Counted from the stretch's first letter, positions 2,504 to 15,470 are shown. The stretch is 24,000 nt of DNA from an uncultured Candidatus Saccharibacteria bacterium (GCA_964369045.1 CAYJDY010000010.1:3333-27332); one strand, 5' to 3'. Numbers and translations are program-made. The notes: generated from the sequence alone by a model not told the origin.

Positions 2504-3175
2504 ATGCTAATGTATACGCATATTATGAAAAACAATGAAGCACACAAGTTTAATCAAATGATGGCCGGAGTAGGCGAGAAAGACCGTTCGCCCGAATTCA
2601 AAATTGCGCGAGCTAAAATCATCGATACTGTCGACGATATGTTTTCACAACTCGAAGATGCAAAGGAGAGTGGCGACCGACCTTTTAAGTTTGGAGGCGC
2701 GGTATTCGGCGTGCTCGGCATAGAGCGTTCGACTGTTCAAAACCCATTTGGTGGGGTATCACTCCTAAGTGAGAAAGCAAAAGCAACTCCTGGTTTGTAT
2801 GTTGGTCATGACCAAGCAGATGGCCAAGATGTAATCTTTCTGCGACGGCCCGATAAAACTACAGTTGAAATTCGACGCGATGCACTGCTTACCGGACTTA
2901 TTTTACCTGCTGATCCAGCAAGTTCATGGGACCCAGCTCCAAAAACTGTTAGTAACCTCCAAAATCTTGTAAGTATTACCGAGAGTCAGGAAGATGGCGG
3001 TTCACACGGGTATAGCGTAACTGCCTCAGGGGCTATTTATCATACAACAAAAGAACCGGGCAGAAACGGAATGAATAGCACTGGCCCCATAGGTCCTACA
3101 GATATTGAAGCAGTGGCTTCTGCACAAGCATTGTTTGATCAAGCACAGCAGGACTTCTTTCTAGACCAGGACTAG
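2504..3175 (+). CDS. Hypothetical protein (223 aa; the true start may be ATG 2525)
   Basis: This is a long ORF with no recognisable motif. TTGACA (2485-2490), a 17-nt spacer and TAATGT (2508-2513) would place the transcription start after ATG 2504, which favours M8 (2525) as the start. Confidence 0.5.
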   Translation: MLMYTHIMKNNEAHKFNQMMAGVGEKDRSPEFKIARAKIIDTVDDMFSQLEDAKESGDRPFKFGGAVFGVLGIERSTVQNPFGGVSLLSEKAKATPGLYVGHDQADGQDVIFLRRPDKTTVEIRRDALLTGLILPADPASSWDPAPKTVSNLQNLVSITESQEDGGSHGYSVTASGAIYHTTKEPGRNGMNSTGPIGPTDIEAVASAQALFDQAQQDFFLDQD

Positions 3176-4242
3176 ACGTTAAAACGAAATTCAACGATGT
3201 CGTTGGGTTGCATGATGTAGGTTTTGCCCTCGGTACGTACTTTTCCGTTTGCCTTGGCAGCTTGTTCAGAGCCCGCGGTAATGAGGTCTTCATAATCAAT
3301 AATTTGGGCAGCGATAAACCCTCGTTCGAAGTCCCCATGAATCACGCCAGCTGCTTGCGGGGCAGTGAAGCCTTTCTTGATTGTCCAGGCACGAACTTCT
3401 TTTTCGCCAGCAGTTAGGTAACTTTGTAGTCCTAATATGTCGTAGGCAGTATGAATCAGTTGCACCAGTCCTGATTCGGACTGTCCATAGCTCTCTAGCA
3501 TCTCGGTGCGATCATTTTCGTCTAGCCCTCGAAGTTCGCTTTCCAGCTTTGCACAGATAAACAAACTTTTTGATGGTGCTACAATTGTGCTGAGTTTGTC
3601 TCGTCTTTCCTTATCAATAAGTGTGTCTTCATCTACGTTGAACACGTAAATTACTTGTTTGGCTGTTATAAGTTGCAGGTCTGCAATATGTTCCGGGTTA
3701 ATGCCAAGCTCACTGGCAAGACGTCCGTCATTTAATCCGGTTAGTAAGGTTTGATACGACTCAACAATTGGTTTTAATTTTGTGTTCGCCCGGGCCTCTT
3801 TCTCTAGGCGGGGGAGCCGTTTCTCTAGCGTTTGGATATCTGCCAGCACCAGCTCAGTATTAATAATGTCGATGTCTTTTTTTGGATCGTGCTGTTCATC
3901 AACGTGGATGATGTCGTTATCAGTAAAAGCCCGTACTACATGCACAATTGCATTGGTGCTACGAATGTGGCTCAGGAACTGATTTCCTAGTCCTTCACCT
4001 TTGGATGCTCCAGCAACGAGTCCTGCGATATCAACAAATGTTACCGTGGCAGGGATAACTTTTTGGGCGTTGTATAGATCGCGCAGCTTCTGAAGCCGCT
4101 CATCAGGTACCGGTACGATACCAGTGTTTGGCTCGATGGTTGCAAAAGGGTAGTTGGCAGCTAATACCTCTGCATCCGTCAGGGCATTAAAGAGGGTAGA
4201 TTTGCCAACGTTAGGCAGTCCAACAATTCCTATTGAAAGCAT
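3172..4242 (-). CDS. ychF: Ribosome-binding ATPase YchF (Obg-family P-loop NTPase)
   Basis: It has the canonical N-terminus MLSIGIVGLPNVGKSTLFNALT, the FVDIAGLV..AS.GEGLGN.FL motif, and a TGS-like C-terminus ending ...YIMQPNDIVEFRFNV. Confidence 0.95.
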   Translation of the reverse strand: MLSIGIVGLPNVGKSTLFNALTDAEVLAANYPFATIEPNTGIVPVPDERLQKLRDLYNAQKVIPATVTFVDIAGLVAGASKGEGLGNQFLSHIRSTNAIVHVVRAFTDNDIIHVDEQHDPKKDIDIINTELVLADIQTLEKRLPRLEKEARANTKLKPIVESYQTLLTGLNDGRLASELGINPEHIADLQLITAKQVIYVFNVDEDTLIDKERRDKLSTIVAPSKSLFICAKLESELRGLDENDRTEMLESYGQSESGLVQLIHTAYDILGLQSYLTAGEKEVRAWTIKKGFTAPQAAGVIHGDFERGFIAAQIIDYEDLITAGSEQAAKANGKVRTEGKTYIMQPNDIVEFRFNV

Positions 4243-5905
4243 TTAAACCAACCTTTCCGTCTTTTGACAGATGATTTGACAACTGGTCTGAAAAGTTAGA
4301 TTCATGTAGTTGTTTTGTAAAGTACCCGTTGCTATCGTTAGCATAGTACCCAACTTGTTCTGTCGCTGGAATTGGAATACGACCCCATATAGTGACCTCC
4401 TGCTTAGTTGCTTCTATTTTAGTTACAAGTTTTCTTATAACAGATTTCTTATCTGCAAAATCTAGACTTTGTACTAATTTTAGCACGCCGTCAATCAGTT
4501 GTTCCACTGGAATAACAGGCTTGTTAACAAGTTCTGCTTCAATACCTGACATCTCAGATACTATATCGGCACGCTTGGTATTGGTTTCGTGAAAGTTATC
4601 CTTATACAGACGTTCTGACATTACTCCCTGACCATAGGCTTTAGTGTAGCGGCGTTCCTCATCATCTAAGCTCTTGAGACGCTTTTTAAGTGCTACTAGC
4701 TGGCTTTCTAGTGGGGAAGAGGACTTCTGCCAGCGTTCCGCTTGCTTGATGACTAGTGAAGGGTCACTGAGTAGAGCTTTTATATTGTTCCAGACTAATG
4801 CGTCAAACACAGGTGCGTTGATACCGTGCTCGTAGCATTGGCGAGGCAGAGGAAACTTACTAAGCCTGTCAGTGCAACGATAGTATAGATTTCCTTTGTT
4901 GGCAGGGTCACCAGTACGGGCTTTTCCGCATACACAATTCACCAAGCCAGCCACAAGGTACTGATTTTTGCTGTTATTTCGTGTGTTGACTCTCTTATGG
5001 AGTGCTAACTGTACTTGAACCTTATCAAATAGCTCTGGGCTAACGATTGCTGGCACTTCTACGCTTAGCCACTCTTCCATAGGACGGCGTTTGCGGCTAC
5101 CTTTAATCACTTTGCGATACTTCTGTTCAGGATTTTGTGGGTTCTTTGTAGGTACAGATTCACTCTTGTTATAGTAGTGAATACCTTTGTAGGTGGTATC
5201 TCTGACCGTTCGGTCAAGTGTTCCGCCACTCCATTGTTCACGCTTTCCTTTAGGTGGGGTAATGCCTTGTTCGAATAGTTGACGCTTCACTTCGTGCTTA
5301 GACATACCCGAAGCGATCCACTCAAATATCCGTTTAACAACTTTGGCTTGAGCCTTGTTGATAGAGAAGTATCCGTCACGAGCGTCTTCACCTGATTTTA
5401 TGCGTAGGTGATAGTCATAGCCATACTTAGGCTGGTAGCCTAAGAGCTTCTTGTTCTCACGAACTTTGCGGACTTTACCAAGACGCATACGCTCGGTAAT
5501 TTTAACCCTCTCATATTCGTGGAAGATACCCATTACACTGCCCATCATCACTTCTTCGCTGGTTTGCCCGTTAATATCATGTAGGCTTATGTATTCAATT
5601 CCACATTCACGTAGTTCCTCTAAAATAATCTCTTGATGAAGAAATTTACGTGACACACGTCCTCTGTCGTAAGAGTAGAGGACATCAAACTTTTTATCCC
5701 GTGCGTCTGAACGCATACGGTCTAGGTCGGGTCGCTCAATAATTGCTCCACTCCAACCCTCGTCTTTGTATATGCACTCTGGTAGTAGGTGGACATCTTT
5801 GTCTTCTTTGATTCGAGCAAGTAGCTCCATCTCTTGGCTTTGGATTGTTTGTTCTTCTTCTTGCTGTGCCGTACTGACACGCATATAAATTGCTGCTTTT
5901 TTCAT
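4211..5905 (-). CDS. Large serine recombinase (integrase)
   Basis: The N-terminal resolvase-type catalytic domain reads AAIYMRVSTAQQ (catalytic Ser) ...YSYDRGRVSRKF. It is followed by a recombinase domain (W.GGTLDRTVRDTTYKGIHYYNK), a Cys-containing zinc ribbon (CVCGK...YYRCTDR...RQC) and a coiled-coil tail. The SD AAGGAG lies upstream. Confidence 0.9.
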   Translation of the reverse strand: MKKAAIYMRVSTAQQEEEQTIQSQEMELLARIKEDKDVHLLPECIYKDEGWSGAIIERPDLDRMRSDARDKKFDVLYSYDRGRVSRKFLHQEIILEELRECGIEYISLHDINGQTSEEVMMGSVMGIFHEYERVKITERMRLGKVRKVRENKKLLGYQPKYGYDYHLRIKSGEDARDGYFSINKAQAKVVKRIFEWIASGMSKHEVKRQLFEQGITPPKGKREQWSGGTLDRTVRDTTYKGIHYYNKSESVPTKNPQNPEQKYRKVIKGSRKRRPMEEWLSVEVPAIVSPELFDKVQVQLALHKRVNTRNNSKNQYLVAGLVNCVCGKARTGDPANKGNLYYRCTDRLSKFPLPRQCYEHGINAPVFDALVWNNIKALLSDPSLVIKQAERWQKSSSPLESQLVALKKRLKSLDDEERRYTKAYGQGVMSERLYKDNFHETNTKRADIVSEMSGIEAELVNKPVIPVEQLIDGVLKLVQSLDFADKKSVIRKLVTKIEATKQEVTIWGRIPIPATEQVGYYANDSNGYFTKQLHESNFSDQLSNHLSKDGKVGLNAFNRNCWTA

Positions 5906-6087
5906 TGCTTTCTCCTTGTGGAGTGGTTGGCTATAAATTTCTGCAAGGCGGTTTCACTAATGCGGTAGCCTCTGCCAAGCTTAACGGCTTCTAACTTTCC
6001 GCTTTTAATGTAAGTGAGTACGCTCTGCCAGTGGATTTGCAGTATGTCTGCTACTTCCTGTACTGTATGAAATTTATAGTCAACCAT
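5902..6087 (-). CDS. Excisionase/MerR-type HTH DNA-binding protein (candidate recombination directionality factor or regulator)
   Basis: The 61-aa product has HTVQEVADILQIHWQSVLTYIKSGKLEAVKLGRGYRISETALQKFI, which matches the excisionase-family HTH_17 pattern. Its stop overlaps the recombinase ATG (ATGA, 5902-5905). Confidence 0.7.
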   Translation of the reverse strand: MVDYKFHTVQEVADILQIHWQSVLTYIKSGKLEAVKLGRGYRISETALQKFIANHSTRRKQ

Positions 6088-6097
6088 TGTATCTCCA

Positions 6098-6125
6098 TTA
6101 TTAGTTATTTGTAAGTAATTGTCAA
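6098..6125 (-). promoter_or_regulatory. Candidate sigma70-type promoter for the HTH-recombinase operon
   Basis: On the minus strand, TTGACA (6125-6120) is followed by a 16-nt spacer and TAATAA (6103-6098), about 10 nt upstream of ATG 6087. Confidence 0.4.
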
Positions 6126-6144
6126 TGTTAATCTGTTATATTCG

Positions 6145-6276
6145 TTATCTAATCTCCTTTTCTACCTGTTCAAATAGTTTGTTAAATATCTCGTCTAAGA
6201 TGTTGGATTCGTCTTCCACGACTATGTATTCAACCGTCGGTTCTTTTTGCGGGCTAGATGCTTCCTTTCTTTTCAT
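6145..6276 (-). CDS. Possible small ORF (43 aa, MKRKEASSPQKEPTVEYIVVEDESNILDEIFNKLFEQVEKEIR)
   Basis: I translated this by hand; it is below the ORF-track size cutoff. It has the same orientation as the surrounding operon and a plausible charged composition. No SD or family was recognised. Confidence 0.25.
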   Translation of the reverse strand: MKRKEASSPQKEPTVEYIVVEDESNILDEIFNKLFEQVEKEIR

Positions 6277-6290
6277 GGCATATCTTCTAA

Positions 6291-6437
6291 GTCTTATCTA
6301 TCTCATAAACAGTAATCCTATAGGTTAGTTAGCTATCTATTAGTACTAGCTATCTCATAGTTCTTGGTAATCCTATAGGTTAAATAGTTATCTATACAGA
6401 ATTAGTTATCTAATAGGTCTAGTAATCAAATAGGTTA
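6291..6437. repeat. Operator/iteron-like repeat array with 55-bp periodicity
   Basis: The 16-mer GTAATCCTATAGGTTA occurs at 6312-6327 and 6367-6382, with a degenerate copy GTAATCAAATAGGTTA at 6422-6437. Its core CCTATAGG is palindromic. The copies are interleaved with TAGCTATCT (6330-6338, 6347-6355) and TAGTTATCT (6385-6393, 6403-6411). Confidence 0.8.
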
Positions 6438-6451
6438 CTCTTATGTGAGAT

Positions 6452-6814
6452 TTAGAAAGACTTACCCTCCATTTCATCAATGGCTTTACCTAGCTCTGCT
6501 TCAATATCCATGTCCTCAATATCTTCAAAGACTTCTGAAGCGTTGTCGAACTCATCTACTGCTTTCAGTGCCAGCTCTTTCAAGAACTGCAACAGTTCGC
6601 TCGAACTGTCGTATTCGTAGTTGGTCTTCCAGTCCCCATTGGCGTTAAGTATTGCTGGCTTATAGACAACATACTCGCCCTCTTGAAGTTTTGACGGTAT
6701 GACACGTATGCCACTTACATAGAGACCTACGTCTGGGAAGTGAAGTTTGACGAAGTACGTACCGTTATCACGCTTACTAACCTCTGGGTAGTTGTGGCTA
6801 AAGTCTATATGCAT
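6452..6814 (-). CDS. Hypothetical protein (120 aa) with a beta-rich N-terminal half and a strongly acidic C-terminal tail
   Basis: The ORF overlaps the upstream gene's stop by 10 nt, which suggests translational coupling. The tail is DEFDNASEVFEDIEDMDIEAELGKAIDEMEGKSF. There is a faint SpoVG-like pattern (GLYVSGIRVI...), but it is not reliable. Confidence 0.55.
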   Translation of the reverse strand: MHIDFSHNYPEVSKRDNGTYFVKLHFPDVGLYVSGIRVIPSKLQEGEYVVYKPAILNANGDWKTNYEYDSSSELLQFLKELALKAVDEFDNASEVFEDIEDMDIEAELGKAIDEMEGKSF

Positions 6815-7182
6815 GACGAACCCCCATTGATGTCATGCCACAGCTTGTGCAACAGGTCGTACCACTCATCTGTATTGCGGTAGCGGTTGCAAAACACACG
6901 GTCTAGCTGTGCTTCCATAAGCTCAACATTCAAACATTTACGACGATACTGATTAACGTAGAATTTCTGACGTAACCAGCTTGGCTTTTGCTTGCCAGCT
7001 TGCTCAAAAAGCCACTTGGCCGTACTAAGCTGCTGACGTGTGATTGTTATTTCGATTTTAGACGCAACTCTCATCTGAGAAGTTGAATCGTTAATCGGTG
7101 TTTGGTGGCCATGAGCACTATTTGTGTGTTCCGAGCCATTCTGTTTATTTTGGTCGTGACTTTCTTTCTTAAAGTCTTTCAT
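6805..7182 (-). CDS. Hypothetical protein (125 aa)
   Basis: The ORF has the SD AAGGA 9 nt upstream of the ATG. No family was recognised. Confidence 0.55.
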   Translation of the reverse strand: MKDFKKESHDQNKQNGSEHTNSAHGHQTPINDSTSQMRVASKIEITITRQQLSTAKWLFEQAGKQKPSWLRQKFYVNQYRRKCLNVELMEAQLDRVFCNRYRNTDEWYDLLHKLWHDINGGSSCI

Positions 7183-7336
7183 TGTTATTGTCCTTAGGTT
7201 TATGGAGCACCGACGAGTTCGCTATTAAGTCGGTGGATTCCTGCGAACCTACATCGAGGATATTTCAAGCAGGAGCAATAGTCGTTGAATCGGTTTTATG
7301 TTGTATAAAAGTGGTTCAATTGAAGTTCAATTCGGT

Positions 7337-8290
7337 TCACTCTGGTTCATCTGGTGCAAGAAAGCCCCACTCAATGAGTAGCTCATCAGGCCAAAGAGTT
7401 GTTTTAGCCCCCGCCCGTGCTAGTTCTGCTTCGAATTCATAAATGTCGATTTTCTCGGCCATTGCCTCATCACGGGTTACTTTTGGACGGAAGACAATTT
7501 GTTTATCTTCCCTAATCGTGGGGAAGAATAATGCTCTAAGCGTTGGCGTAAAGCCCGCACTACTTAACACCGTACTGATGTTACGTGCCGTCTTATCAAT
7601 GTTGGGCTTAAATAGTTTGTCTGGGTTGCTAGTGGATTGTTCCATTAGCTGGTCTAATACCGAATCAACATGTGCCTTCTTCAGTTTAAGTGCGTCATTC
7701 ACTAAGATTGAGCCGTCTAATTTATATGTTAGGGTAAATTCAGGTATGTACCACATTCGTGGCTGTCGAGTTTCTTCTTCATCACCTGCTTCTTCATGCC
7801 TTTTCAGGGCTTCTTCAACCACTATTTTGTTATATTTATCTAGTACGACTTGAACGAGTCCAATTAGTTTCTTTTGTTCTGGCGAGAAGTCAGGAGTATC
7901 CTTATCGGCGATTATGCATAGTCTATCTATCTCGGCTATATGGTAATCAATGTACTTGCTAGGATTTTTGATGTACTTAACAGGGCTTTCCTTGCTCTCG
8001 TATAATCTTTCTAGGAATTTCTGGACATCGTATGCCGCATGGATATAATCAATCTGCTGCCATATTGGTTCGTATTTAATGTTAGCTAACTCAGTGTTTC
8101 GCTTATACAATTCTTGTAGCTCGTTCACCAGTAATACATACACACGGTTAATTTCCTTTAGGTCGAAGTCTGGGCTGTGAACAACAATTTGGTACAGGCT
8201 AAAAATGTTTATTACTTTGCTTGCGTATTCATTCAATGATTTTGCTACTGCATAATCGTTGGCTTTTGATGGTTGTTTTGGATCACCCAT
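7337..8290 (-). CDS. Hypothetical island protein (317 aa)
   Basis: This is a long ORF with coding-like composition. TATAAT (minus strand, 8307-8302) lies 11 nt upstream of the ATG. No family was recognised. Confidence 0.65.
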   Translation of the reverse strand: MGDPKQPSKANDYAVAKSLNEYASKVINIFSLYQIVVHSPDFDLKEINRVYVLLVNELQELYKRNTELANIKYEPIWQQIDYIHAAYDVQKFLERLYESKESPVKYIKNPSKYIDYHIAEIDRLCIIADKDTPDFSPEQKKLIGLVQVVLDKYNKIVVEEALKRHEEAGDEEETRQPRMWYIPEFTLTYKLDGSILVNDALKLKKAHVDSVLDQLMEQSTSNPDKLFKPNIDKTARNISTVLSSAGFTPTLRALFFPTIREDKQIVFRPKVTRDEAMAEKIDIYEFEAELARAGAKTTLWPDELLIEWGFLAPDEPE

Positions 8291-8399
8291 AATTAGATAA
8301 CATTATAGGTGATTTTGTAGCTGTTAAGCCAGACGCTTGTACCTGTACCTTATCTGTCATAATTAGAGTAGTAGTTTTGACAGACAAAAAGGAGTTATT
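8291..8399. promoter_or_regulatory. Divergent promoter/operator region between the 317-aa gene (-) and the 77-aa HTH gene (+)
   Basis: It contains a minus-strand TATAAT (8302-8307). TTAGATAAC (8293-8301) is the reverse complement of GTTATCTAA from the 6405-6413 repeat. TATAGGT matches the 16-mer core. CATAATTAGA is duplicated at 8288-8297 and 8357-8366. The SD AAAGGAG lies before ATG 8400. Confidence 0.5.
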
Positions 8400-8633
8400 A
8401 TGGCAATCAAGAATGCCGTTGGGCGACCACCAAAATTCAACATGAAAACCGTAGACAAGTTAGCATTCTATATTCAGCGTAACTACAACGTTAGTGACAG
8501 TTGTAAATTTGTTAGCATTTCGAGGTCTACTTATTACAAGTATTTAAAGTCTGAACCACTATTTGCAGATAGCATAGCTACCGCACAGGACAACGCCAAT
8601 AAGGTAAGTTTTAATTTTCGTACATATCCTTAG
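8400..8633 (+). CDS. Small HTH DNA-binding protein (77 aa), possibly a truncated remnant
   Basis: GRPPKF...TVDKLAFYI...SDSCKFVSISRSTYYKYLKSEPLFADSIATAQ matches the homeodomain-like HTH found at the N-termini of small terminase, transposase and resolvase proteins. The ORF ends abruptly and is followed by 320 bp with no convincing ORF. Confidence 0.5.
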   Translation: MAIKNAVGRPPKFNMKTVDKLAFYIQRNYNVSDSCKFVSISRSTYYKYLKSEPLFADSIATAQDNANKVSFNFRTYP

Positions 8634-8884
8634 CTCAACTAGTTTCCGTGTACATGATTTCAATACAGATAGTGTCTATAAATGGCGGTAATCTGCAACG
8701 AAAAAACGGCGTTAAGGTGTCAAAATACTGGGAAAAATCATATCCGACGATACTCTTGATAAGAATCAGTGTTACCATGAACGGGTTTTGGCTGTGTTCT
8801 AGAGGTACAGAGAGGGGTCTAGGAGCGTTTTTCGTTAAAGTTAATGTAAGTTTCATATCTGACGATATTAGTCTAAAACCCCTG

Positions 8885-8913
8885 TTGACATATAAAGCTT
8901 ATTATGCTACAAT
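8885..8913 (+). promoter_or_regulatory. Near-consensus sigma70 promoter upstream of the cargo operon
   Basis: TTGACA (8885-8890) is followed by a 17-nt spacer and TACAAT (8908-8913). A second TATAAT (8941-8946) lies 7 nt upstream of ATG 8954. Confidence 0.55.
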
Positions 8914-8953
8914 CTAGACAGTAAAGCAAAAATAAAAAGTTATAATTTTAATT

Positions 8954-10657
8954 ATGGAAACAGTACCTAAATCACCGCAAGAAATGGCAGCCCAAATGCT
9001 GGACGTTTATCCGTATTTCAGCGACTACGCTATGCCTGAAGGTGAAGCTACACGACTAGGAGACCAAGTGAAGGGATTAAAAGCCGAAGTTGAGGGTATT
9101 AAGCCTTATATGCTTCCTGATGAGGAACTTGCTCCTAAGCTGGAAGATGTTAAGCAAAGAGCTACAGAAAGTGGCGTTTGGCGGGCTGATAAGGGCGAGG
9201 GTGCAGACGAGCGTTTAGCATTCGCAGTTGAACAAAAGAAAGGATATGGTTACACCGAGGAAGAAGCAACCGCAGGTGCAGTAAAGGAGCTCAAACGTAA
9301 CGGCTATCTTGATGCAATTAGGGACAAGCGTAAAGAACAAGAACGCCTATTCAAAGACCCCATAAGTGAATACATCGGCAACCATAAAGTAGAAGCTTCA
9401 ACAGAAAAAAACGAGATTGAAATGCTACTTGAGCGAACGGTTGACATTACAACTCTTACCGAAGCTGAATTAGGAAAGCTATCACATGATTTTCCTTCTG
9501 GTAATTTTGTATATCATGGCACTGGCACAGAGCAACTAGTCCAGATACTAGATTCGGGTGTCTTAGCGAATGCAAAAGCATTATACGAACGTGAAGAGGC
9601 GGCAGCTAAAGCAGAAGGCCGTGAAAAGGGAATGATTCGGCGTAACTCTGGTTTTGAAGGTGTATCGTGGAGTATGAACGGTATTGACGCTCTACCAGGA
9701 GACAGATACCACATGGCTGGTTTTTTGGCAGCACCTGAAGCCATTTTAAGCGATACAATGCAGCTTGCAGTACCATCACGACCTGCACCGAACGAGGTCT
9801 TGCAGATTTCTGCGGAAGTAGACGCAAGTGAGTTTTATGACGCTAAAACACAGTTTGAGTTGTATCGTAATCCCGGTATGTTTGGTGAAACTAATTCAGT
9901 TTTTGACAATATGTTCTCGGTCAGTATGTGGGAAAAAGAGGAAAACAGACAGTTTCGTGATGAGCCAATGCTTTATCAGGCAAAGCGTGGTTTACTTGCT
10001 CAGCCAGAGTACCAAGACCAATTACGTGAACTGTATTCAGTAGACGAGGTTGGCAAGATTCGTCTGGACCCAGACTTATTGCAGCAAATTGATAATGAGA
10101 TACCAGTTGCCGCCGTATGGTTACAAGCTGCAATAGATACAGGCCGCTTAAAGGGAACGCAATTTGCGGACAAAGAGCTTTCTGCAATTATTGACGAGCT
10201 GAATGGCGAAAATATCAAAGGACTAATAGGCAATAGTCGGCAAGATTGGGAACAATATGAAGCAGTTCTTGATGAAGCTGAGAAAGTTGCTGGCAACGTG
10301 GAGATACCAGTGGAGAATATGTACTTTGTGGCACCTCGTAAAGACGCTGAAGCTTGGCTCAAAGTAATGGCTCGTAGCCAGTACAAGCCAGCAGGAATAC
10401 TGCTATATGATGATAAGAAAGTTCGTCTTGAGAACTTTGCTTCACTACATCGTGGCGACCATACAGAACTAACAGCAGAGCTACAGGCAGCTATTAAGCC
10501 TGAAAGTGAAGGTTACATTGATTATGCCAAAGTGCTTGGCACAGAATTTAGCGACGATATGCGTACTGGTCACAAGCACCAAGTTATTGCCGAAAAGCAC
10601 CTTGCCAACCGTGGTACCATTAAAAAAGTGAATGATAAGCTGGTAATAGAAAGGTAA
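8954..10657 (+). CDS. Large hypothetical protein (567 aa) with a central ADP-ribosyltransferase-fold-like (Tpt1/KptA, DarT, PARP-type 'YHGT') signature
   Basis: This is a long ORF with coding-like composition. Residues ~185-285 read FVYHGTGTEQLVQILDSGVL ... GFEGVSWSMNG ... PNEVLQIS, which parallels the H / aromatic-S / E elements of H-Y-E class ART folds. Compare E. coli KptA, FLYHGTASRFLDEIKKQGL...YVHLS. The functional call is by motif only. Confidence 0.4.
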   Translation: METVPKSPQEMAAQMLDVYPYFSDYAMPEGEATRLGDQVKGLKAEVEGIKPYMLPDEELAPKLEDVKQRATESGVWRADKGEGADERLAFAVEQKKGYGYTEEEATAGAVKELKRNGYLDAIRDKRKEQERLFKDPISEYIGNHKVEASTEKNEIEMLLERTVDITTLTEAELGKLSHDFPSGNFVYHGTGTEQLVQILDSGVLANAKALYEREEAAAKAEGREKGMIRRNSGFEGVSWSMNGIDALPGDRYHMAGFLAAPEAILSDTMQLAVPSRPAPNEVLQISAEVDASEFYDAKTQFELYRNPGMFGETNSVFDNMFSVSMWEKEENRQFRDEPMLYQAKRGLLAQPEYQDQLRELYSVDEVGKIRLDPDLLQQIDNEIPVAAVWLQAAIDTGRLKGTQFADKELSAIIDELNGENIKGLIGNSRQDWEQYEAVLDEAEKVAGNVEIPVENMYFVAPRKDAEAWLKVMARSQYKPAGILLYDDKKVRLENFASLHRGDHTELTAELQAAIKPESEGYIDYAKVLGTEFSDDMRTGHKHQVIAEKHLANRGTIKKVNDKLVIER

Positions 10658-10662
10658 TATCA

Positions 10663-11013
10663 ATGACAAATCCATTTGAAGAATTAAAGACAGCCGAAAG
10701 CTTACTAAAAAAATATGAGCCTTCTAACGATCCTGAGCTTGATTACCGACAGCTCAAAGCTCTATTGGCTCAAGAAAGAGTGCTTGATTATTGTAGGATT
10801 GATATGTTTGAAAAGCACAAGCACGGCAGCAGTAAAGCGAAAGACTATGTCTTCCGTGAGTACATGGTGCGACACCAGATTAGTGAATTTGCACTCAAAT
10901 TGAACAAAGAAGTTACTGACAGAATCACGGGTGAAGACCCAGAAGAAAAGTCATTTGTAGCCATGTGTGTTAAGAACAGAGAACTTTATCCAAAACCAGT
11001 TAAAAAGACTTAA
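10663..11013 (+). CDS. Hypothetical helical protein (116 aa), coupled to the 567-aa gene
   Basis: It starts 5 nt after the upstream stop, and the SD-like GAAAGG lies inside the end of the upstream gene. No family was recognised. Confidence 0.6.
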   Translation: MTNPFEELKTAESLLKKYEPSNDPELDYRQLKALLAQERVLDYCRIDMFEKHKHGSSKAKDYVFREYMVRHQISEFALKLNKEVTDRITGEDPEEKSFVAMCVKNRELYPKPVKKT

Positions 11014-11037
11014 GTCATCTCGGCTATAATACCAAGC

Positions 11038-11595
11038 ATGAACGTACTTGCCATTGCCGATAGAAGACCAAAAATAGATATTCAAGAAGTCGTTCAGCAG
11101 AATAACATTGAACTTATTGTAACCTTAGGCGATTTGACTCGTGAAGACTTGCTGCAACTTGAGCAAGTAACCACAATTCCCAAGATAGGTGTATATGGCA
11201 ACCACGATAGTGGTACATATATGTCTGATTTAGGTATTTGGGACATGAACCTTAAGGTTTGGGATTATAAAGGATTACGATTCGGTGGCTTTCAAGGTTG
11301 TGTTCGTTATAAAGAAAATCCTGACGCAATAATGTGTACTCAGGAAGAAGCCTCTCAGCTAATGGCTAACTTTCCAAAAGTAGATGTTTTCCTCTGCCAT
11401 TGTCCGCCTAGAGGCATAAATGACGAGGAAGAAGTAGCTCATCAAGGTTTTAATGCTTTGCGAGATTATATTGAACGTGAACAGCCAAAAGTGTTGTTAC
11501 ACGGTCATACCTACCCGACAGAGGAGAACGTCGTCAAACAGCACGGCTCTACTCGGATTGAGTATGTGTACGAGTATAAGATTCTAACTCTTTAA
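11038..11595 (+). CDS. Calcineurin-like metallophosphoesterase (small YfcE/MJ0936-like type) with degenerate metal-site motifs
   Basis: The motifs present are LGDLTRED (GDxxD), YGNHDS (GNHD), LCHCPP and LHGHTY (GHxH-like). Motif I is IADRR rather than DxH. TATAAT (11025-11030) lies 7 nt upstream of the ATG. Confidence 0.75.
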   Translation: MNVLAIADRRPKIDIQEVVQQNNIELIVTLGDLTREDLLQLEQVTTIPKIGVYGNHDSGTYMSDLGIWDMNLKVWDYKGLRFGGFQGCVRYKENPDAIMCTQEEASQLMANFPKVDVFLCHCPPRGINDEEEVAHQGFNALRDYIEREQPKVLLHGHTYPTEENVVKQHGSTRIEYVYEYKILTL

Positions 11596-11761
11596 CGGCT
11601 TTGGCAACGAATTCATCGGAGTAGCCACGACCACCTTTGTCGGTCGGTGGCATGGTCAGTTTTAGTTCAAAAGGTAGTTGGGTTATAAAGTCATCATACC
11701 AATTTGAAGAGTACTCATACACATATTCTAACAGAGGTAGATAGAATTGACAAATATCCAT
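11549..11761 (-). CDS. Possible small protein (70 aa), divergent from the oxygenase gene
   Basis: The ORF has TATTAT 7 nt upstream of its ATG on the minus strand. Its 3' end overlaps the phosphoesterase gene by 47 nt. No family was recognised and it could be spurious. Confidence 0.35.
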   Translation of the reverse strand: MDICQFYLPLLEYVYEYSSNWYDDFITQLPFELKLTMPPTDKGGRGYSDEFVAKAVKELESYTRTHTQSE

Positions 11762-11784
11762 AAGTATGATAATATACTAATCTT

Positions 11785-12501
11785 ATGTCTGCAGAAAAAA
11801 ACCCTAATTCAAGCTTTCATTTCCCTGAAGCTACAGAAGCGTTACAGGCAGATTTCAATACTACTCTAGAGCGAGTCAAAGATGTAGGTGCTGGCTACAT
11901 GGATATAGTTACAGAAGAGGCATCAGTAGGGCTTGCTCAACAGCTTGCTCAGGAATTGCCCCCAGATGACTGGAATCTAGACCCGGTTGGACGCATGAGG
12001 CAATACGATGTATCTACGCCTACCTCAATGGAGTTTAAAAACCTCACAATTGCCTTATTGGCTGTCGATAGTCCTCAAAGGAAACGTATTGCTGATTGGA
12101 AGCAAGATGCCGGGACGGCTAATGTAGCTGTTTATCCTGCGGGAAAGGATCTTGAATGGCATATTGATGATGATAGTGCAGGAATTGTCGCTGTGCTGAC
12201 ACTCACGAACGAAGCAAACTTCTACTATATGGGGCAAGACAAACGAGTTCACGCCATACTCACAAAACCTGGTCGGCTGGTTCTAGTAGAAGGGGGCTCT
12301 TATGGGGCATGGCATTCAGTCTCGCAGCCACTAAGACCTGGCGAGCGGACCATTCTAAGTATGGGCTCAGCGGATTATAGCGATTACGAATATGATGGGG
12401 CTGGAGCACGTGCAATGATGCAATCCCTACGAAGAGCACGGGGACAGAAGCTAGAAGCTAAGAGAAAGCGGTTCGGTGGCGCACGAGTTATCTGGGACTG
12501 A
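11785..12501 (+). CDS. 2OG-Fe(II) oxygenase superfamily protein, AlkB-like core
   Basis: NVAVYPAGKDLEWHIDDDSAGIVAVLTLTNEANFYY...LTKPGRLVLVEGGSYGAWHSVSQPL..GERTILSMG parallels the AlkB pattern N.Y..G..L..H.D.D...IVSVSLG...F....L..GD.VV.GG.SR..H.V.P....R..LTFR (HxD...H...R facial triad plus 2OG-binding Arg). This is a motif-level call. Confidence 0.55.
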   Translation: MSAEKNPNSSFHFPEATEALQADFNTTLERVKDVGAGYMDIVTEEASVGLAQQLAQELPPDDWNLDPVGRMRQYDVSTPTSMEFKNLTIALLAVDSPQRKRIADWKQDAGTANVAVYPAGKDLEWHIDDDSAGIVAVLTLTNEANFYYMGQDKRVHAILTKPGRLVLVEGGSYGAWHSVSQPLRPGERTILSMGSADYSDYEYDGAGARAMMQSLRRARGQKLEAKRKRFGGARVIWD

Positions 12502-12723: not shown

Positions 12724-13221
12724 ATGAAGCTTTTCAAAAAAAGTGCTATGGTCAAGGGATCCTCTATACAAACTGGCGCAGTTCAACCTGCCCAAAAACC
12801 TCATCAAAAACGTAAAGTTTTTAAGTTTTTACTCCTACTGCTCGTGATTCTCCTTGGTGCAGGCGGGTATGCTTACTATCAAGGGAGGAATGCTCCAATA
12901 GCCAATCCTAACGCTTGCAGTAAGGGCATTAGCATGCAGGCAAGCCCATATCTTGGCGCCGCAAAGAACCAGGAACTAAAACCTATCGTCAAGAAAATAC
13001 TCGGTACCAAAGATTTCGATAAAGATTCGGCTTGCAACCTAATACTTACGCAGTACTACATCAATATTTCTGATCCTAAGAATGCTCGCTTGTACTATGA
13101 CAAACTCATGCAACAAGTAAAGCCGAACGAAAAAACTGAAGTAATGCTCGGCAGTGTTGTATTCCTCGAAAAACAGACAACAGGGAAAAGCAATGTGATT
13201 TATCTGGGTGAGAACAAATGA
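12724..13221 (+). CDS. Single-pass membrane-anchored protein (165 aa), function unknown
   Basis: A basic N-terminus is followed by the TM segment FKFLLLLLVILLGAGGYAYY and then a soluble domain. Its stop overlaps the next gene's ATG (ATGA, 13218-13221). Confidence 0.6.
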   Translation: MKLFKKSAMVKGSSIQTGAVQPAQKPHQKRKVFKFLLLLLVILLGAGGYAYYQGRNAPIANPNACSKGISMQASPYLGAAKNQELKPIVKKILGTKDFDKDSACNLILTQYYINISDPKNARLYYDKLMQQVKPNEKTEVMLGSVVFLEKQTTGKSNVIYLGENK

Positions 13222-15470
13222 AACTGAAGATTACCACATTCTTTATTGTTGTCTTTGCATTAACGCTTGGGGTGTTTATCTTTAGTCCAGGTAGGGCATC
13301 GGCCGCCGCCGTAGATGACCCATGGTATATTCCTTGGTGGAAGAACCTCGAAATGCGTGCTTGTGATGGTACTGCCAACGAAGCCGCTCAGACATCGTGG
13401 CTGTCGCTACAAGGAAACAGCTTGGCGACCTCCGCCGAAGTGCCATACGGTTCCACAAGTGTCAACTTACAGATGAACTACCTAGTTTACATTTGTAGCC
13501 GCGGACTAAATAGTAACGGTGACGTGGCTACGGGTAGGATTGGCACAAACTTTGTTAACCTTAGCTCTAACCCGAATATCCCAGGTTTGGTAACAGGGAC
13601 AATCATCGTGCCATACGGTGCATACAACAGTAGATGGACGATGGTTTCCAAGCCGTTTACCTATGACTTTGGCGGTCCGATTACCTCGACTAGAGATATT
13701 CATATCGACACTGTCGACAAAAAGATAAACCAGCGACGTAACGGAAGTTATGAATGTGTTACCAATCCTGGTGACGTAAACTTCAGAACGCCGGGTAATT
13801 ATTACGATTTTGATGCTTGTAGAAGCACCGGTGGAGCCTCGCTCGATATGCATATTACGGTGAGCGATAAACCGCCAACTATTGGTATAGACGCTAACGG
13901 GAGCTGTAACGCCATTACCGGCTGGGCATGGGACGAGGACTCTCCGGGCGCACCACTTCGGGTTGATATATGGCTGGATGGCCCGGCAGGAAGTGGATGG
14001 GGCCTCGCTAGCATTACGGCAAATCAGCCGAGCCCAGATGTTAATGCCATCTATCCGGTAACAGGAAATACACCACACAGGTTTAATTTCGATATCACAC
14101 CGTACATCGACTTTGCTACGAGCGGACCGAGAACGTTCTTCGTTTACTTCCTGAACAAAGATCAAGCAGGTAATGCTGTTAGTTGGGAGATAAGAAACGT
14201 TACGGTCGATGTTCCTAATTGTGGCACACCATTCTCACTTACCCCTTCAGGCAAGACAGACTTCGTTCCAGACACCGAAGATCCAACGAGTGTTTCATTT
14301 AGTAATATGGGGGTTGGTGGTTCAACTCCGACTGTTAATGGGGTTACCGTTAGTAGGAAGTACGTTCTTAAGCGGACCGGCCAACCTGACACAGACTTAG
14401 GCTCACCGGCCGATGCCGTATATAACGTAGGTGCGGGCGGATTGACATTCCCTAATGAGTCAAAAACTGTCAGTAATCTGACGGCGGGTGACCAGGTTTG
14501 TTATGTTGTTACTCTCAATCCGGGGACAGGACGGGTGAATAGAAATACGGGGGCAGTGATTGCTGGCTCAGGAGGTTCTGTTTCGCGATCGTACTGTGAT
14601 CGTGTGGCAAACAAACCTTACGTATCATTCTATGGCAATGACGTGAAAGCTGGTGGTGGTTTCGAAGGTGGTTCGTGTAATACGGCTGCAGGTATAACGA
14701 CCAGTGCGTCGTCTAAGGGCTCCGGAAGTGTGCAGTTTGCAGCCTATGCACTTGGTGCAATCAGTGGCTTTTCTAGCGCATCGCTTCGGTCAAGCGCACC
14801 AACTGCGCCGAGTGGACTTACGTTCACTAGCTTCAGTACCAGCGGATGTACACATGATTACTTCGCCGATGGCGCAGCAACCGCTACACCAGGTCCAGTA
14901 ACAATCGGTACTACCAATGTTGGAGCTGGCTCGCATGTATATAGGTATGTTAACGGTGATGTAATAATAACAGGGAATATATCAATGAGTTCCGGTCCTT
15001 GGGCCAACAAAGCTTCCATTCCTAGTTTTTACCTTGTTGCTAAGGGTAATATCTATATTGATAAAAGTGTTACGCGTCTCGATGGTGTGTACGTTTCACA
15101 AGCAAATGCCACACCAGGTAGTGGGGCGATCTACACTTGTACAAATGGTTCTGCTCAGATTCCTGTAAAAGATCTGTATACCGAATGTGGCAGGCAGCTT
15201 ATTGTTAACGGTTCATTCGTATCACAAAAAGTGGCACTGCTGCGTACTTATGGATCGCTTCGTAATGCGCTTAGCGATACTCCATATGGTGGGCCAAACA
15301 GTATCTGTGCAACAGGCACAGCGGGTCAGCCTAAATCAAGTGTGTGTGCCGCAGAGGTGTTCAATTTTAACCCAAGCCTCTATATAGCCGATTCACCACC
15401 TACAAGTGGGGGCAGCGTTAGGGCTGATCGTGAGTACCAATACTATACTCAGCTTCCGCCGATCCTGTAG
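13218..15470 (+). CDS. Large secreted protein (750 aa), candidate surface/pilus-associated adhesin
   Basis: The N-terminus is signal-peptide-like: MKLKITTFFIVVFALTLGVFIFSPGRASA/AAV. The product is rich in Gly, Ser, Thr and Asn and has multiple Cys. The C-terminal third has beta-helix-like repeats (GNDVKAGGG, GDVIITGNI, KGNIYIDKSV..LDGVYVSQ, LIVNGSFVSQKV). Confidence 0.75.
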   Translation: MKLKITTFFIVVFALTLGVFIFSPGRASAAAVDDPWYIPWWKNLEMRACDGTANEAAQTSWLSLQGNSLATSAEVPYGSTSVNLQMNYLVYICSRGLNSNGDVATGRIGTNFVNLSSNPNIPGLVTGTIIVPYGAYNSRWTMVSKPFTYDFGGPITSTRDIHIDTVDKKINQRRNGSYECVTNPGDVNFRTPGNYYDFDACRSTGGASLDMHITVSDKPPTIGIDANGSCNAITGWAWDEDSPGAPLRVDIWLDGPAGSGWGLASITANQPSPDVNAIYPVTGNTPHRFNFDITPYIDFATSGPRTFFVYFLNKDQAGNAVSWEIRNVTVDVPNCGTPFSLTPSGKTDFVPDTEDPTSVSFSNMGVGGSTPTVNGVTVSRKYVLKRTGQPDTDLGSPADAVYNVGAGGLTFPNESKTVSNLTAGDQVCYVVTLNPGTGRVNRNTGAVIAGSGGSVSRSYCDRVANKPYVSFYGNDVKAGGGFEGGSCNTAAGITTSASSKGSGSVQFAAYALGAISGFSSASLRSSAPTAPSGLTFTSFSTSGCTHDYFADGAATATPGPVTIGTTNVGAGSHVYRYVNGDVIITGNISMSSGPWANKASIPSFYLVAKGNIYIDKSVTRLDGVYVSQANATPGSGAIYTCTNGSAQIPVKDLYTECGRQLIVNGSFVSQKVALLRTYGSLRNALSDTPYGGPNSICATGTAGQPKSSVCAAEVFNFNPSLYIADSPPTSGGSVRADREYQYYTQLPPIL

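Follow-up and report, generated by a model that had tools for sequence, protein, structure and literature searches.

Saccharibacteria, which are ultra-small, and other candidate phyla radiation (CPR) bacteria have tiny genomes with many unannotated genes, and little is known of their mobile elements. In a 24,000-nucleotide (nt) stretch of DNA from an uncultured Candidatus Saccharibacteria bacterium (GCA_964369045.1, CAYJDY010000010.1:3333-27332; this whole stretch is called the window below), positions 8,954 to 12,501 hold five open reading frames (ORFs) in and next to a recombinase-borne island. They are called here p567 (a 567-amino acid (aa) protein), p116 (116 aa), MPE185 (a 185-aa phosphoesterase), p70 (70 aa), and the 238-aa gene. 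A preliminary description had taken all five to be a single cargo module, serving either a conflict system centered on nicotinamide adenine dinucleotide (NAD) and ADP-ribose or the repair of RNA. Do these genes indeed form one mobile unit, and what might its largest protein do?

The explanation that we favor, with reasonable rather than strong confidence in it as a whole, is that the island carries a cargo of three genes, that p567 has a site resembling that of ADP-ribosyltransferases (ARTs), that the 238-aa AlkB-like gene belongs to the host, and that the recombinase exchanges its tail upon integration. All five ORFs were confirmed at the coordinates that had been assigned to them (Table 1). 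The identical gene order is present on contigs from three independent samples (the window arrangement, re-sampled as L042-44), and it is therefore not an artefact of assembly. Those database relatives that bear names are Candidatus Saccharibacteria or Saccharimonadales. Literature searches returned no publications on the p567 family or on the island.

The island at ychF

The five ORFs span the distal part of the island together with about 0.8 kilobases (kb) of host DNA. From sequence comparison, the island is very probably ~7.5 kb long, occupying window positions ~4232-11709 between ychF and the native promoter of ychF. The recombinase contains Resolvase, Recombinase, and zinc-ribbon domains, and the ends of the island are discrete and common to divergent hosts, as expected of an island mobilized by a large serine recombinase; on both the domains and the identity profile given below, the recombinase-borne island of the preliminary description was upheld. 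Like the integrative islands and prophages that use such recombinases, this one has an adjacent excisionase-type helix-turn-helix (HTH) protein, whose sequence makes it the likely directionality factor of the island, and is inserted site-specifically at one end of one gene in several hosts. As an element it is of an ordinary kind, although its phylum has been little studied.

The limits of the island emerge from a nucleotide identity profile, in 100-nt windows, against L001, a locus with the same island in a divergent host. Identity is 48-78% in ychF, jumps to 94-100% from ~4215-4265 onward, and drops to 34-41% at ~11690-11740. In between, it is 80-100% in the recombinase, HTH77 (a 77-aa DNA-binding protein), p567, MPE185, and the tail of p70, and 54-80% in p116. 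At the protein level, YchF is 69.7% identical between the two loci, the recombinase 97%, and p567 94%. Synonymous divergence (dS) from L001 is saturated in ychF and amounts to 0.27 in the recombinase gene, 0.18 in the excisionase gene, 0.74 and 0.41 in the ORFs of 120 and 125 aa, 0.46 in HTH77, 0.44 in p567, 1.04 in MPE185, and 1.53 in p116. Furthermore, in L011, a more distant host with the island at the same site, YchF is 60% and PilM 45% identical, but p567 is 88% and MPE185 85% identical. The host markers thus disagree with the identity of the cargo, and therefore p567, p116, and MPE185 move with the recombinase between divergent hosts. What results is a small island with clean limits, moving between hosts that have only 60-70% identity in YchF and always landing at the start of ychF.

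At the left end, AAACCAACCT directly follows the ychF start codon in all of the island-bearing loci. At the right end, a sequence common to all copies extends to 11672-11686, and the window and L001 are alike to ~11704; homology to L009 and L011 ends at 11685 and that to L001 at about 11704-11738. Reading by eye revealed a 9-nt imperfect inverted repeat at the ends (TAAACCAAC at 4244-4252 and GTTGGGTTA at 11677-11685) and two candidate crossovers, ATTGAAAG at 4232-4239 and ATTTGAAG at 11702-11709, which match directly in 6/8 nt as ATT(N)GAAG; neither of these pairs is long enough to count as significant by itself. A search for inverted or direct repeats between the two island ends, at 13/18 nt or more, found none.

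Three points weigh against this account of the island. First, the dS of p116 and MPE185 (1.0-1.5) exceeds that of p567 (0.44), and the island is therefore a mosaic. Second, we infer the exact crossover sites from breaks in similarity and from short repeats. Third, neither an excised circle nor an empty site of the same species was seen; the one island-free relative available for comparison at this site, L014, has a YchF of ~69% identity. As to the mosaic, its right-hand segment may have been replaced or may be older (p116 at 10663-11013, compared with 11714-12061 in L001).

A different island, 4.4 kb long and ending at 8648-8665 (inverted repeat I3), with p567 as a resident gene outside it, was also considered. 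This reading relied on the island-free L014 and on promoter homology starting at 8885; it was rejected because the identity profile and the dS values show that p567 travels with the recombinase.

In L009, a second, larger island (3042-11548) apparently lies in tandem after the first. Its genes comprise those for an excisionase and a recombinase (46% identical), those for an HTH77-like protein, a DUF5659 protein, and a Toprim protein of 726 aa, and two uncharacterised cargo genes. The first of its cargo genes (414 aa) was examined as a possible relative of p567 and rejected as unrelated.

Table 1. Positions of the island, its genes and sites, and the flanking host features in the window
Feature	Position	Strand	Evidence and remarks
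ychF	3172-4242	-	Start codon 4240-4242
Large serine recombinase (564 aa when integrated)	4211-5905	-	Pfam Resolvase 2.7e-24, Recombinase 1.3e-17, Zn_ribbon_recom 1.4e-5
Left end, putative attL region	4232-4256		Overlaps ychF start codon; identity jump against L001, five-locus alignment, sequence reading
Excisionase-type HTH protein, 61 aa	5902-6087	-	NCBIfam TIGR01764 2.3e-11; PHROG excisionase matches
Three 17-nt direct repeats (GTAATCCTATAGGTTA-like)	6311-6437		Repeat search; spacing 55 nt; inside island
Island backbone ORFs of 120, 125, and 317 aa	6452-8290	-	No above-threshold family match
HTH77, HTH_7-type DNA-binding protein	8400-8633	+	Pfam HTH_7 9.6e-5 (just below cut-off); PHROG small-terminase-like/HTH 5.7e-9
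Cargo promoter TTGACA-17-TGcTACAAT with A-rich leader	8885-8953	+	11/12 consensus matches, TG extension; -10 box ends at 8913
p567	8954-10657	+	Variable helical N-terminal part 1-145; conserved core 146-567
p116	10663-11013	+	Partner in one subclade, seen only with p567
MPE185, calcineurin-like metallophosphoesterase	11038-11595	+	Pfam Metallophos 2.1e-7
Right end, putative attR region	11549-11709	-	Recombinase tail; similarity ends against L009, L011, L001
p70	11549-11761	-	
Probable native ychF promoter TTGTCA-17-TAGAAT	11725-11753	-	Motif; -10 box conserved in L001 right flank and in island-free L014
238-aa AlkB-like 2-oxoglutarate (2OG)-Fe(II) oxygenase gene with its own promoter	11747-12501	+	ORF 11785-12501; promoter TTGACA-17-TAATAT (11747-11775); outside island right end at ~11709

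The recombinase tail and p70

The right end of the island accounts for p70. BLASTP aligns its residues 12-70, at 66% identity, with the final 59 residues of the 603-aa serine recombinase of L009. That recombinase immediately follows MPE185, with orientation and 47-nt antisense overlap both the same; in the window, the recombinase tail (11549-11709, minus strand) is likewise antisense to the last 47 nt of MPE185. Judged by this alignment, p70, which had been counted among the cargo genes, is not an independent gene but a chimera of a recombinase tail and host promoter DNA, its N-terminal part covering what appears to be the displaced native promoter of ychF.

If so, joining of the island ends should restore a longer recombinase. 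An in-frame join, e.g. 4244|11686, yields a 599-aa recombinase that ends in ...KVGL-ITQLPFELKLTMPPTDKGGRGYSDEFVAKAVKELESYTRTHTQSE and is colinear with that of L009. When the intact ORF of L009 (VGLNA-xx-WY...) is used as a ruler, the two halves in the window share one register, a match that requires the length of the island to be a multiple of three; since the chance of this is 1 in 3, the agreement lends the proposed join weak support. In the integrated form, the last ~10 codons of the recombinase gene run into the 5' end of ychF (4211-4256).

These findings suggest a model in which the excised form would encode a recombinase with the conserved 45-aa tail, while the integrated form would encode one with ~10 host-encoded residues that overlap ychF. 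Integration would then swap the tail of the recombinase, with a possible effect on its activity or stability. Elements are known that have attP within a gene and therefore alter its product when they integrate, as in the integration-dependent immunity of some mycobacteriophages. The present island resembles these in that the recombinase reading frame crosses the attachment site, but differs in that the gene altered is that of the recombinase itself, whose 45-aa conserved tail gives way to a ~10-aa host tail. Were the swap functional, a serine recombinase would have in it a simple means of sensing the integration of its own element.

In L011 (5160-9703), an insert of ~3 kb interrupts the recombinase gene and contains a second copy of the tail (87% over 101 nt, corresponding to window 11572-11672). 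The block from the excisionase gene to HTH77 is gone, and the whole looks like a decaying copy of the island.

The cargo operon

The preliminary description had placed four genes behind a near-consensus promoter. The promoter itself was found as claimed, at 8885-8913, and its motif is unique in the window; the four-gene unit held for p567, p116, and MPE185 but failed for the 238-aa gene, which has a promoter of its own and lies outside the island. Only 5 and 24 nt separate the three cargo genes, and no plus-strand terminator lies in either gap. As read from the sequence, these three genes are the sole plus-strand cargo and form an operon with a strong sigma-70-type promoter. The leader is less structured than shuffled sequences (z = +1.95), and an alignment of 12 upstream regions revealed that the promoter and the A-rich leader (8914-8953) are conserved among orthologs down to ~58% protein identity.

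All three genes have ratios of nonsynonymous to synonymous divergence (dN/dS) of 0.04-0.15 against L001; they are therefore real and under purifying selection. Furthermore, the trio recurs in five lineages, with p567 identities of 52-95%: besides the window arrangement, p116 and MPE185 accompany p567 in L001-3, L009, L011, and L020. This co-conservation supports the claim that p567, p116, and the phosphoesterase are carried as island cargo.

How did the island acquire p567? Homology to the island-free L014, and also to L016, begins exactly at 8885, the -35 box. In both of these loci, p567 is a resident gene located within a few hundred bases of that ychF site, and its identity of 65% is about that of the hosts. 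Because this homology starts precisely at the -35 box, near the same site, the island has probably captured a resident p567 together with its promoter.

In L020, a copy of the p567 promoter and leader (13240-13284, minus strand) drives a separate operon of a 181-aa protein and a phosphoesterase, which suggests that the two operons share regulation.

The p567 family and its genomic setting

A search of 5.8 billion proteins found 141 homologs of p567, all of them unnamed, and a profile of the core (residues 146-567), searched against 1.84 billion representatives, identified only 120 clusters (50% identity). By these sequence searches, the family is small, closed, and restricted to CPR bacteria. 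Residues 1-145 are missing in short homologs. The invariant residues include H188 (in FPSGNF-x-YHGT), E235, S238 (in NSG-x-EG-x-SWS), H253, R276, E281, Q300, W389, Q391, D395, and D464, and dN/dS against L001 is 0.06. The AlphaFold (AF2) model has a predicted local distance difference test (pLDDT) score of 90.3 and a predicted template modeling (pTM) score of 0.87. The family that p567 represents is well modeled, and its invariant residues are like those of an enzyme, but none of its relatives has a solved structure.

The context of the gene was surveyed in 30 non-redundant p567 loci, obtained by genome scan and contig look-ups. In most genomes, p567 is a solitary chromosomal gene among those for housekeeping and translation. 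Such solitary sites lie between the genes for L19/RNase HII and ychF, between those for L32/NusB/RNase III/S16 and RecG, and beside the UMP kinase gene. A Pfam census of 150 neighboring ORFs returned most often GTPases of the YchF and EF-Tu types, RNase HII, L19, HSP20, and ribosomal proteins, with recombinases in 2 and metallophosphoesterases in 3. The mostly solitary occurrence of p567 among such genes speaks against its being half of an obligate toxin/immunity pair, and also against a general role in conflict systems.

Type IV pilus genes (pilM, pilB/T/C, pilins) are found no more than a few kb from p567 homologs in L005, L015, L026, L039, L004, L016, and the window. This closeness may be a matter of conserved gene order in small genomes.

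Is p567 an ART-like enzyme?

The preliminary description called p567 ART/Tpt1-like, and the evidence for this is suggestive. A Tpt1 profile, built from Escherichia coli KptA and seven phage homologs and compared by hhalign, matches p567 over 24 columns, a strand-helix (FLYHGT...I...G), at a probability of 59-79% and an E-value of 1.7e-5 to 9e-5. When 46 members of the family were scanned singly, sub-threshold Pfam matches to PTS_2-RNA appeared in 6/46 (best E 0.019), to PARP in 2/46, and to Tox-ART-HYD1 in 1/46. The weak matches among Protein Data Bank (PDB) structures include OspC3 at rank 1 (E 0.69) and DarTG at rank 4 (E 2.7). In addition, the invariant H188, S238 (followed by W239 in at least 90%), and E281 lie on strands that are predicted at 186-190, 237-241, and 281-286, in an order that we take to be that of the His/aromatic/Glu triad of ARTs. 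In a possible likeness to the H-Y-E ARTs (PARP, DarT, and relatives), p567 has an invariant His on the first predicted strand, a GxSWS strand bearing an aromatic residue, and, where a later strand begins, an invariant Glu; it differs in having Ser-Trp in place of the usual Tyr and in giving no significant match by fold or sequence. Unlike DarT systems, p567 has no DarG-like antitoxin or macrodomain partner and is mostly a solitary gene. With Tpt1/KptA, it shares the strand-helix motif that begins the NAD-binding lobe, but it lacks the N-terminal RNA-binding lobe and is three times longer, with extra helical and alpha/beta parts. Given these comparisons, p567 is, on its sequence, not a member of the Tpt1 family. 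That it has an ART-like NAD site or chemistry is a tentative reading, although one that we regard as a real possibility.

Much weighs against even this reading. A Foldseek search with the p567 model found no PDB structure at E below 0.6 and no PDB or viral one at E < 0.03. When residues 146-312 were modeled alone, they reached a pLDDT of only 57, and this domain model is unusable. The PTS_2-RNA (PF01885) score of p567 is 12.3, against a threshold of 26 bits, and an exhaustive profile search with core 146-567 recovered only its own family. The Tpt1 match is confined to one strand-helix motif (columns 98-122), and a relaxed alignment gave no reliable extension. Moreover, the invariant R21, H22, R69, and R125 of Tpt1 have no counterpart in p567, so the catalytic tetrad is absent. 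As to genomic context, an ADP-ribosylglycohydrolase gene is close to the trio in two loci only. In L020, which has no island and in which p567-p116 face the operon of the 181-aa protein and the phosphoesterase, the glycohydrolase gene (13295-14395, minus strand; Pfam PF03747 2e-59) adjoins that operon, and in L009 a homologous gene lies at the far end (11545-12141, plus strand; PF03747 5e-30). A NUDIX gene in the AlkB slot of L001 was considered as a further sign of ADP-ribose metabolism, but it is outside the island and was discounted as a chance neighbor. Other searches gave negative results: p567 has no above-threshold match in Pfam, NCBIfam, PHROGs, or PADLOC; a Pfam scan of ten divergent or longer members returned nothing informative; and PDB sequence searches with whole-protein and putative-domain profiles returned a single Tpt1 chain (E 0.8) and otherwise coiled-coil noise.

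Could p567 then have no ART fold at all? It might instead be a hydrolase or metal-dependent enzyme of a new fold, using H188, H253, E235, E281, and D464, or a non-enzymatic scaffold, in either case with a YHGT motif that arose by convergence. The lack of a significant structural neighbor in the PDB or among viral models, the 24 columns of the motif match, the failure of the putative domain to fold alone, and the closed nature of the family would all be explained in this way. However, independent methods point, weakly, to families of the ART superfamily rather than to random ones, and the many invariant polar residues argue for catalysis, so we consider this alternative rather unlikely.

In the mechanism that we propose, p567 would most likely be an NAD-binding transferase with an ART/Tpt1-type site (FxYHGT...G, H188, S238-W239, E281), and it would probably act on an endogenous target and not as a toxin. 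If the ART-like lead proves true, p567 would be a new type of NAD-using enzyme specific to these epibionts. Neither this lead nor a function of the tail swap, both of them tentative, answers a long-standing question.

p116 and MPE185

The search for p116 relatives found 31 clusters, all 55-100% identical, compared with 141 clusters for p567; for many of the p116 clusters, the longest contig has the same length as that given for a p567 cluster, and p116 is absent from most p567 loci. No family match for p116 was found in Pfam, PADLOC, PHROGs, or NCBIfam. Against L001, p116 is 67% identical at the aa level, compared with 92-95% for the flanking p567 and MPE185, and its dN is 0.22, compared with 0.03-0.04 (dN/dS 0.145).

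MPE185 is above the Pfam thresholds for both PF00149 (32 bits vs 21.5) and PF12850 (29.8 vs 27). It shares with YfcE/MJ0936-type phosphoesterases of these families the motifs GD (31-32), GNHD (54-57), H121, and H155-G-H157; however, in all five copies, motif I reads D8-R9-R10 instead of DxH, and thus the full set of metal-binding motifs (DxH, GD, GNH[DE], H, GHxH) is not present. The enzyme had been described as an atypical phosphoesterase, and so it is. MPE185 is 85-92% identical at the aa level across lineages, with a dN/dS of 0.036. No PDB sequence relative was found at E < 0.1. In PADLOC, there is a partial match to the single-gene defense candidate PDC-S10 (1e-10).

We suggest that p116 and MPE185 might be clade-specific accessory partners of p567, for example, a regulator and a processor of a phosphodiester product. 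In its fullest form, our proposal would make p567 a CPR-restricted clade of NAD-dependent transferases, with an ART-like site in a larger fold that has no solved relative, working with a DxR phosphoesterase and p116 on an endogenous RNA or translation-factor target, while the recombinase tail toggle would act as a switch of directionality or stability. So complete a scheme is speculative and, taken whole, unlikely.

Another hypothesis holds that p567 and p116 are a toxin-immunity or defense pair, with the phosphoesterase as a helper, that stabilizes the island or protects the host. Such a pair could explain why p116 is small, begins 5 nt after p567, is found only with p567, and evolves, as a protein, four to six times faster than its neighbors; the ychF site is, moreover, an integration hot spot, at which L001 also carries a ParE-type toxin pair. 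However, most p567 homologs are without p116 and lie among ribosomal, RNase, and GTPase genes, whereas in type II-like toxin-antitoxin systems, the toxin is always accompanied by the antidote gene. Furthermore, the dN/dS of p116 gives no gene-wide sign of positive selection, and matches to defense models are lacking. Consequently, a toxin-immunity pair is improbable, and the evidence speaks against p116 as an obligate partner in immunity or conflict. The preliminary description was correct in not recognizing a known defense system: no PADLOC model matches p567, p116, or p70, and no known defense, toxin-antitoxin, or RNA-repair system fits the locus.

The ychF promoter and the AlkB-like gene

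To the right of the island lies the probable native promoter of ychF, now 7.5 kb from its gene. This assignment is based on the recurrence of its -10 box and flank (ATTCTAACA) in the right flank of L001 (as TATAAT) and directly upstream of ychF in the island-free L014. Given this position of the promoter, the 238-aa gene would have been the divergent neighbor of ychF before insertion.

The 238-aa protein had been described as an AlkB-like oxygenase. It does have the iron-binding triad H126-x-D128...H177 and the downstream Arg of the AlkB-type dioxygenases (PF13532), as read from its translation, but differs from them in its extreme rarity and in its score, which at 7.4e-5 and 23.5 bits is below the cut-off of 31.2 for Pfam 2OG-FeII_Oxy_2. 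In PADLOC, there is a weak match to a generic 2OG model. Among 5.8 billion proteins, its family comprises only 2 clusters, of which the other is 59% identical and named AlkB by JGI; this only relative, P0153, is also sub-threshold for PF13532 (29.2 bits). The description that suits the protein best is that of a 2OG-Fe(II) oxygenase, AlkB-like but uncertain as to subfamily. The gene is absent from every related locus examined. Its position outside the island and its distribution mark it as a rare gene of the host and not part of the cargo.

The original idea that all five ORFs make up one mobile NAD/ADP-ribose conflict module, or an RNA-repair module of Tpt1, PNKP-type, and AlkB enzymes, draws on the close spacing of four plus-strand genes at an island and on the presence of all three of an ART-like motif, a metallophosphoesterase, and a 2OG oxygenase, but it is very hard to sustain when the AlkB-like gene lies outside the island with its own promoter and is missing from the other trio loci, p70 is a recombinase tail, p567 is without the Tpt1 N-terminal lobe and the R-H-R-R residues, and PADLOC gives no match for p567 or p116.

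Other features of the window

Within the island, HTH77 is 92-94% identical in L001 and L009. The 317-aa ORF (7337-8290) is swapped in the L001 island for an unrelated one (8687-9502; called at 240 aa, with 271 aa in an ORF scan), whereas the rest of that island is ~90% identical; neither the 317-aa ORF nor its replacement has a family match. The three direct repeats, situated between the excisionase gene and the 120-aa ORF, fall in the backbone stretch that is least conserved against L001 (40-68% identity). To judge from the sequence, this region could be a protein-binding array or an origin. A search with Rfam found no RNA families in the window.

Downstream of the five ORFs lie type IV pilus genes. 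Upstream of pilM, a small membrane-anchored protein (~165-175 aa) and a large, secreted-looking protein of 750-870 aa are encoded as a pair, in 1-3 copies depending on the genome. This module adjacent to pilM is variable and duplicating, as seen in the window (12724-15470), in L004 (9795-15917), and in L016.

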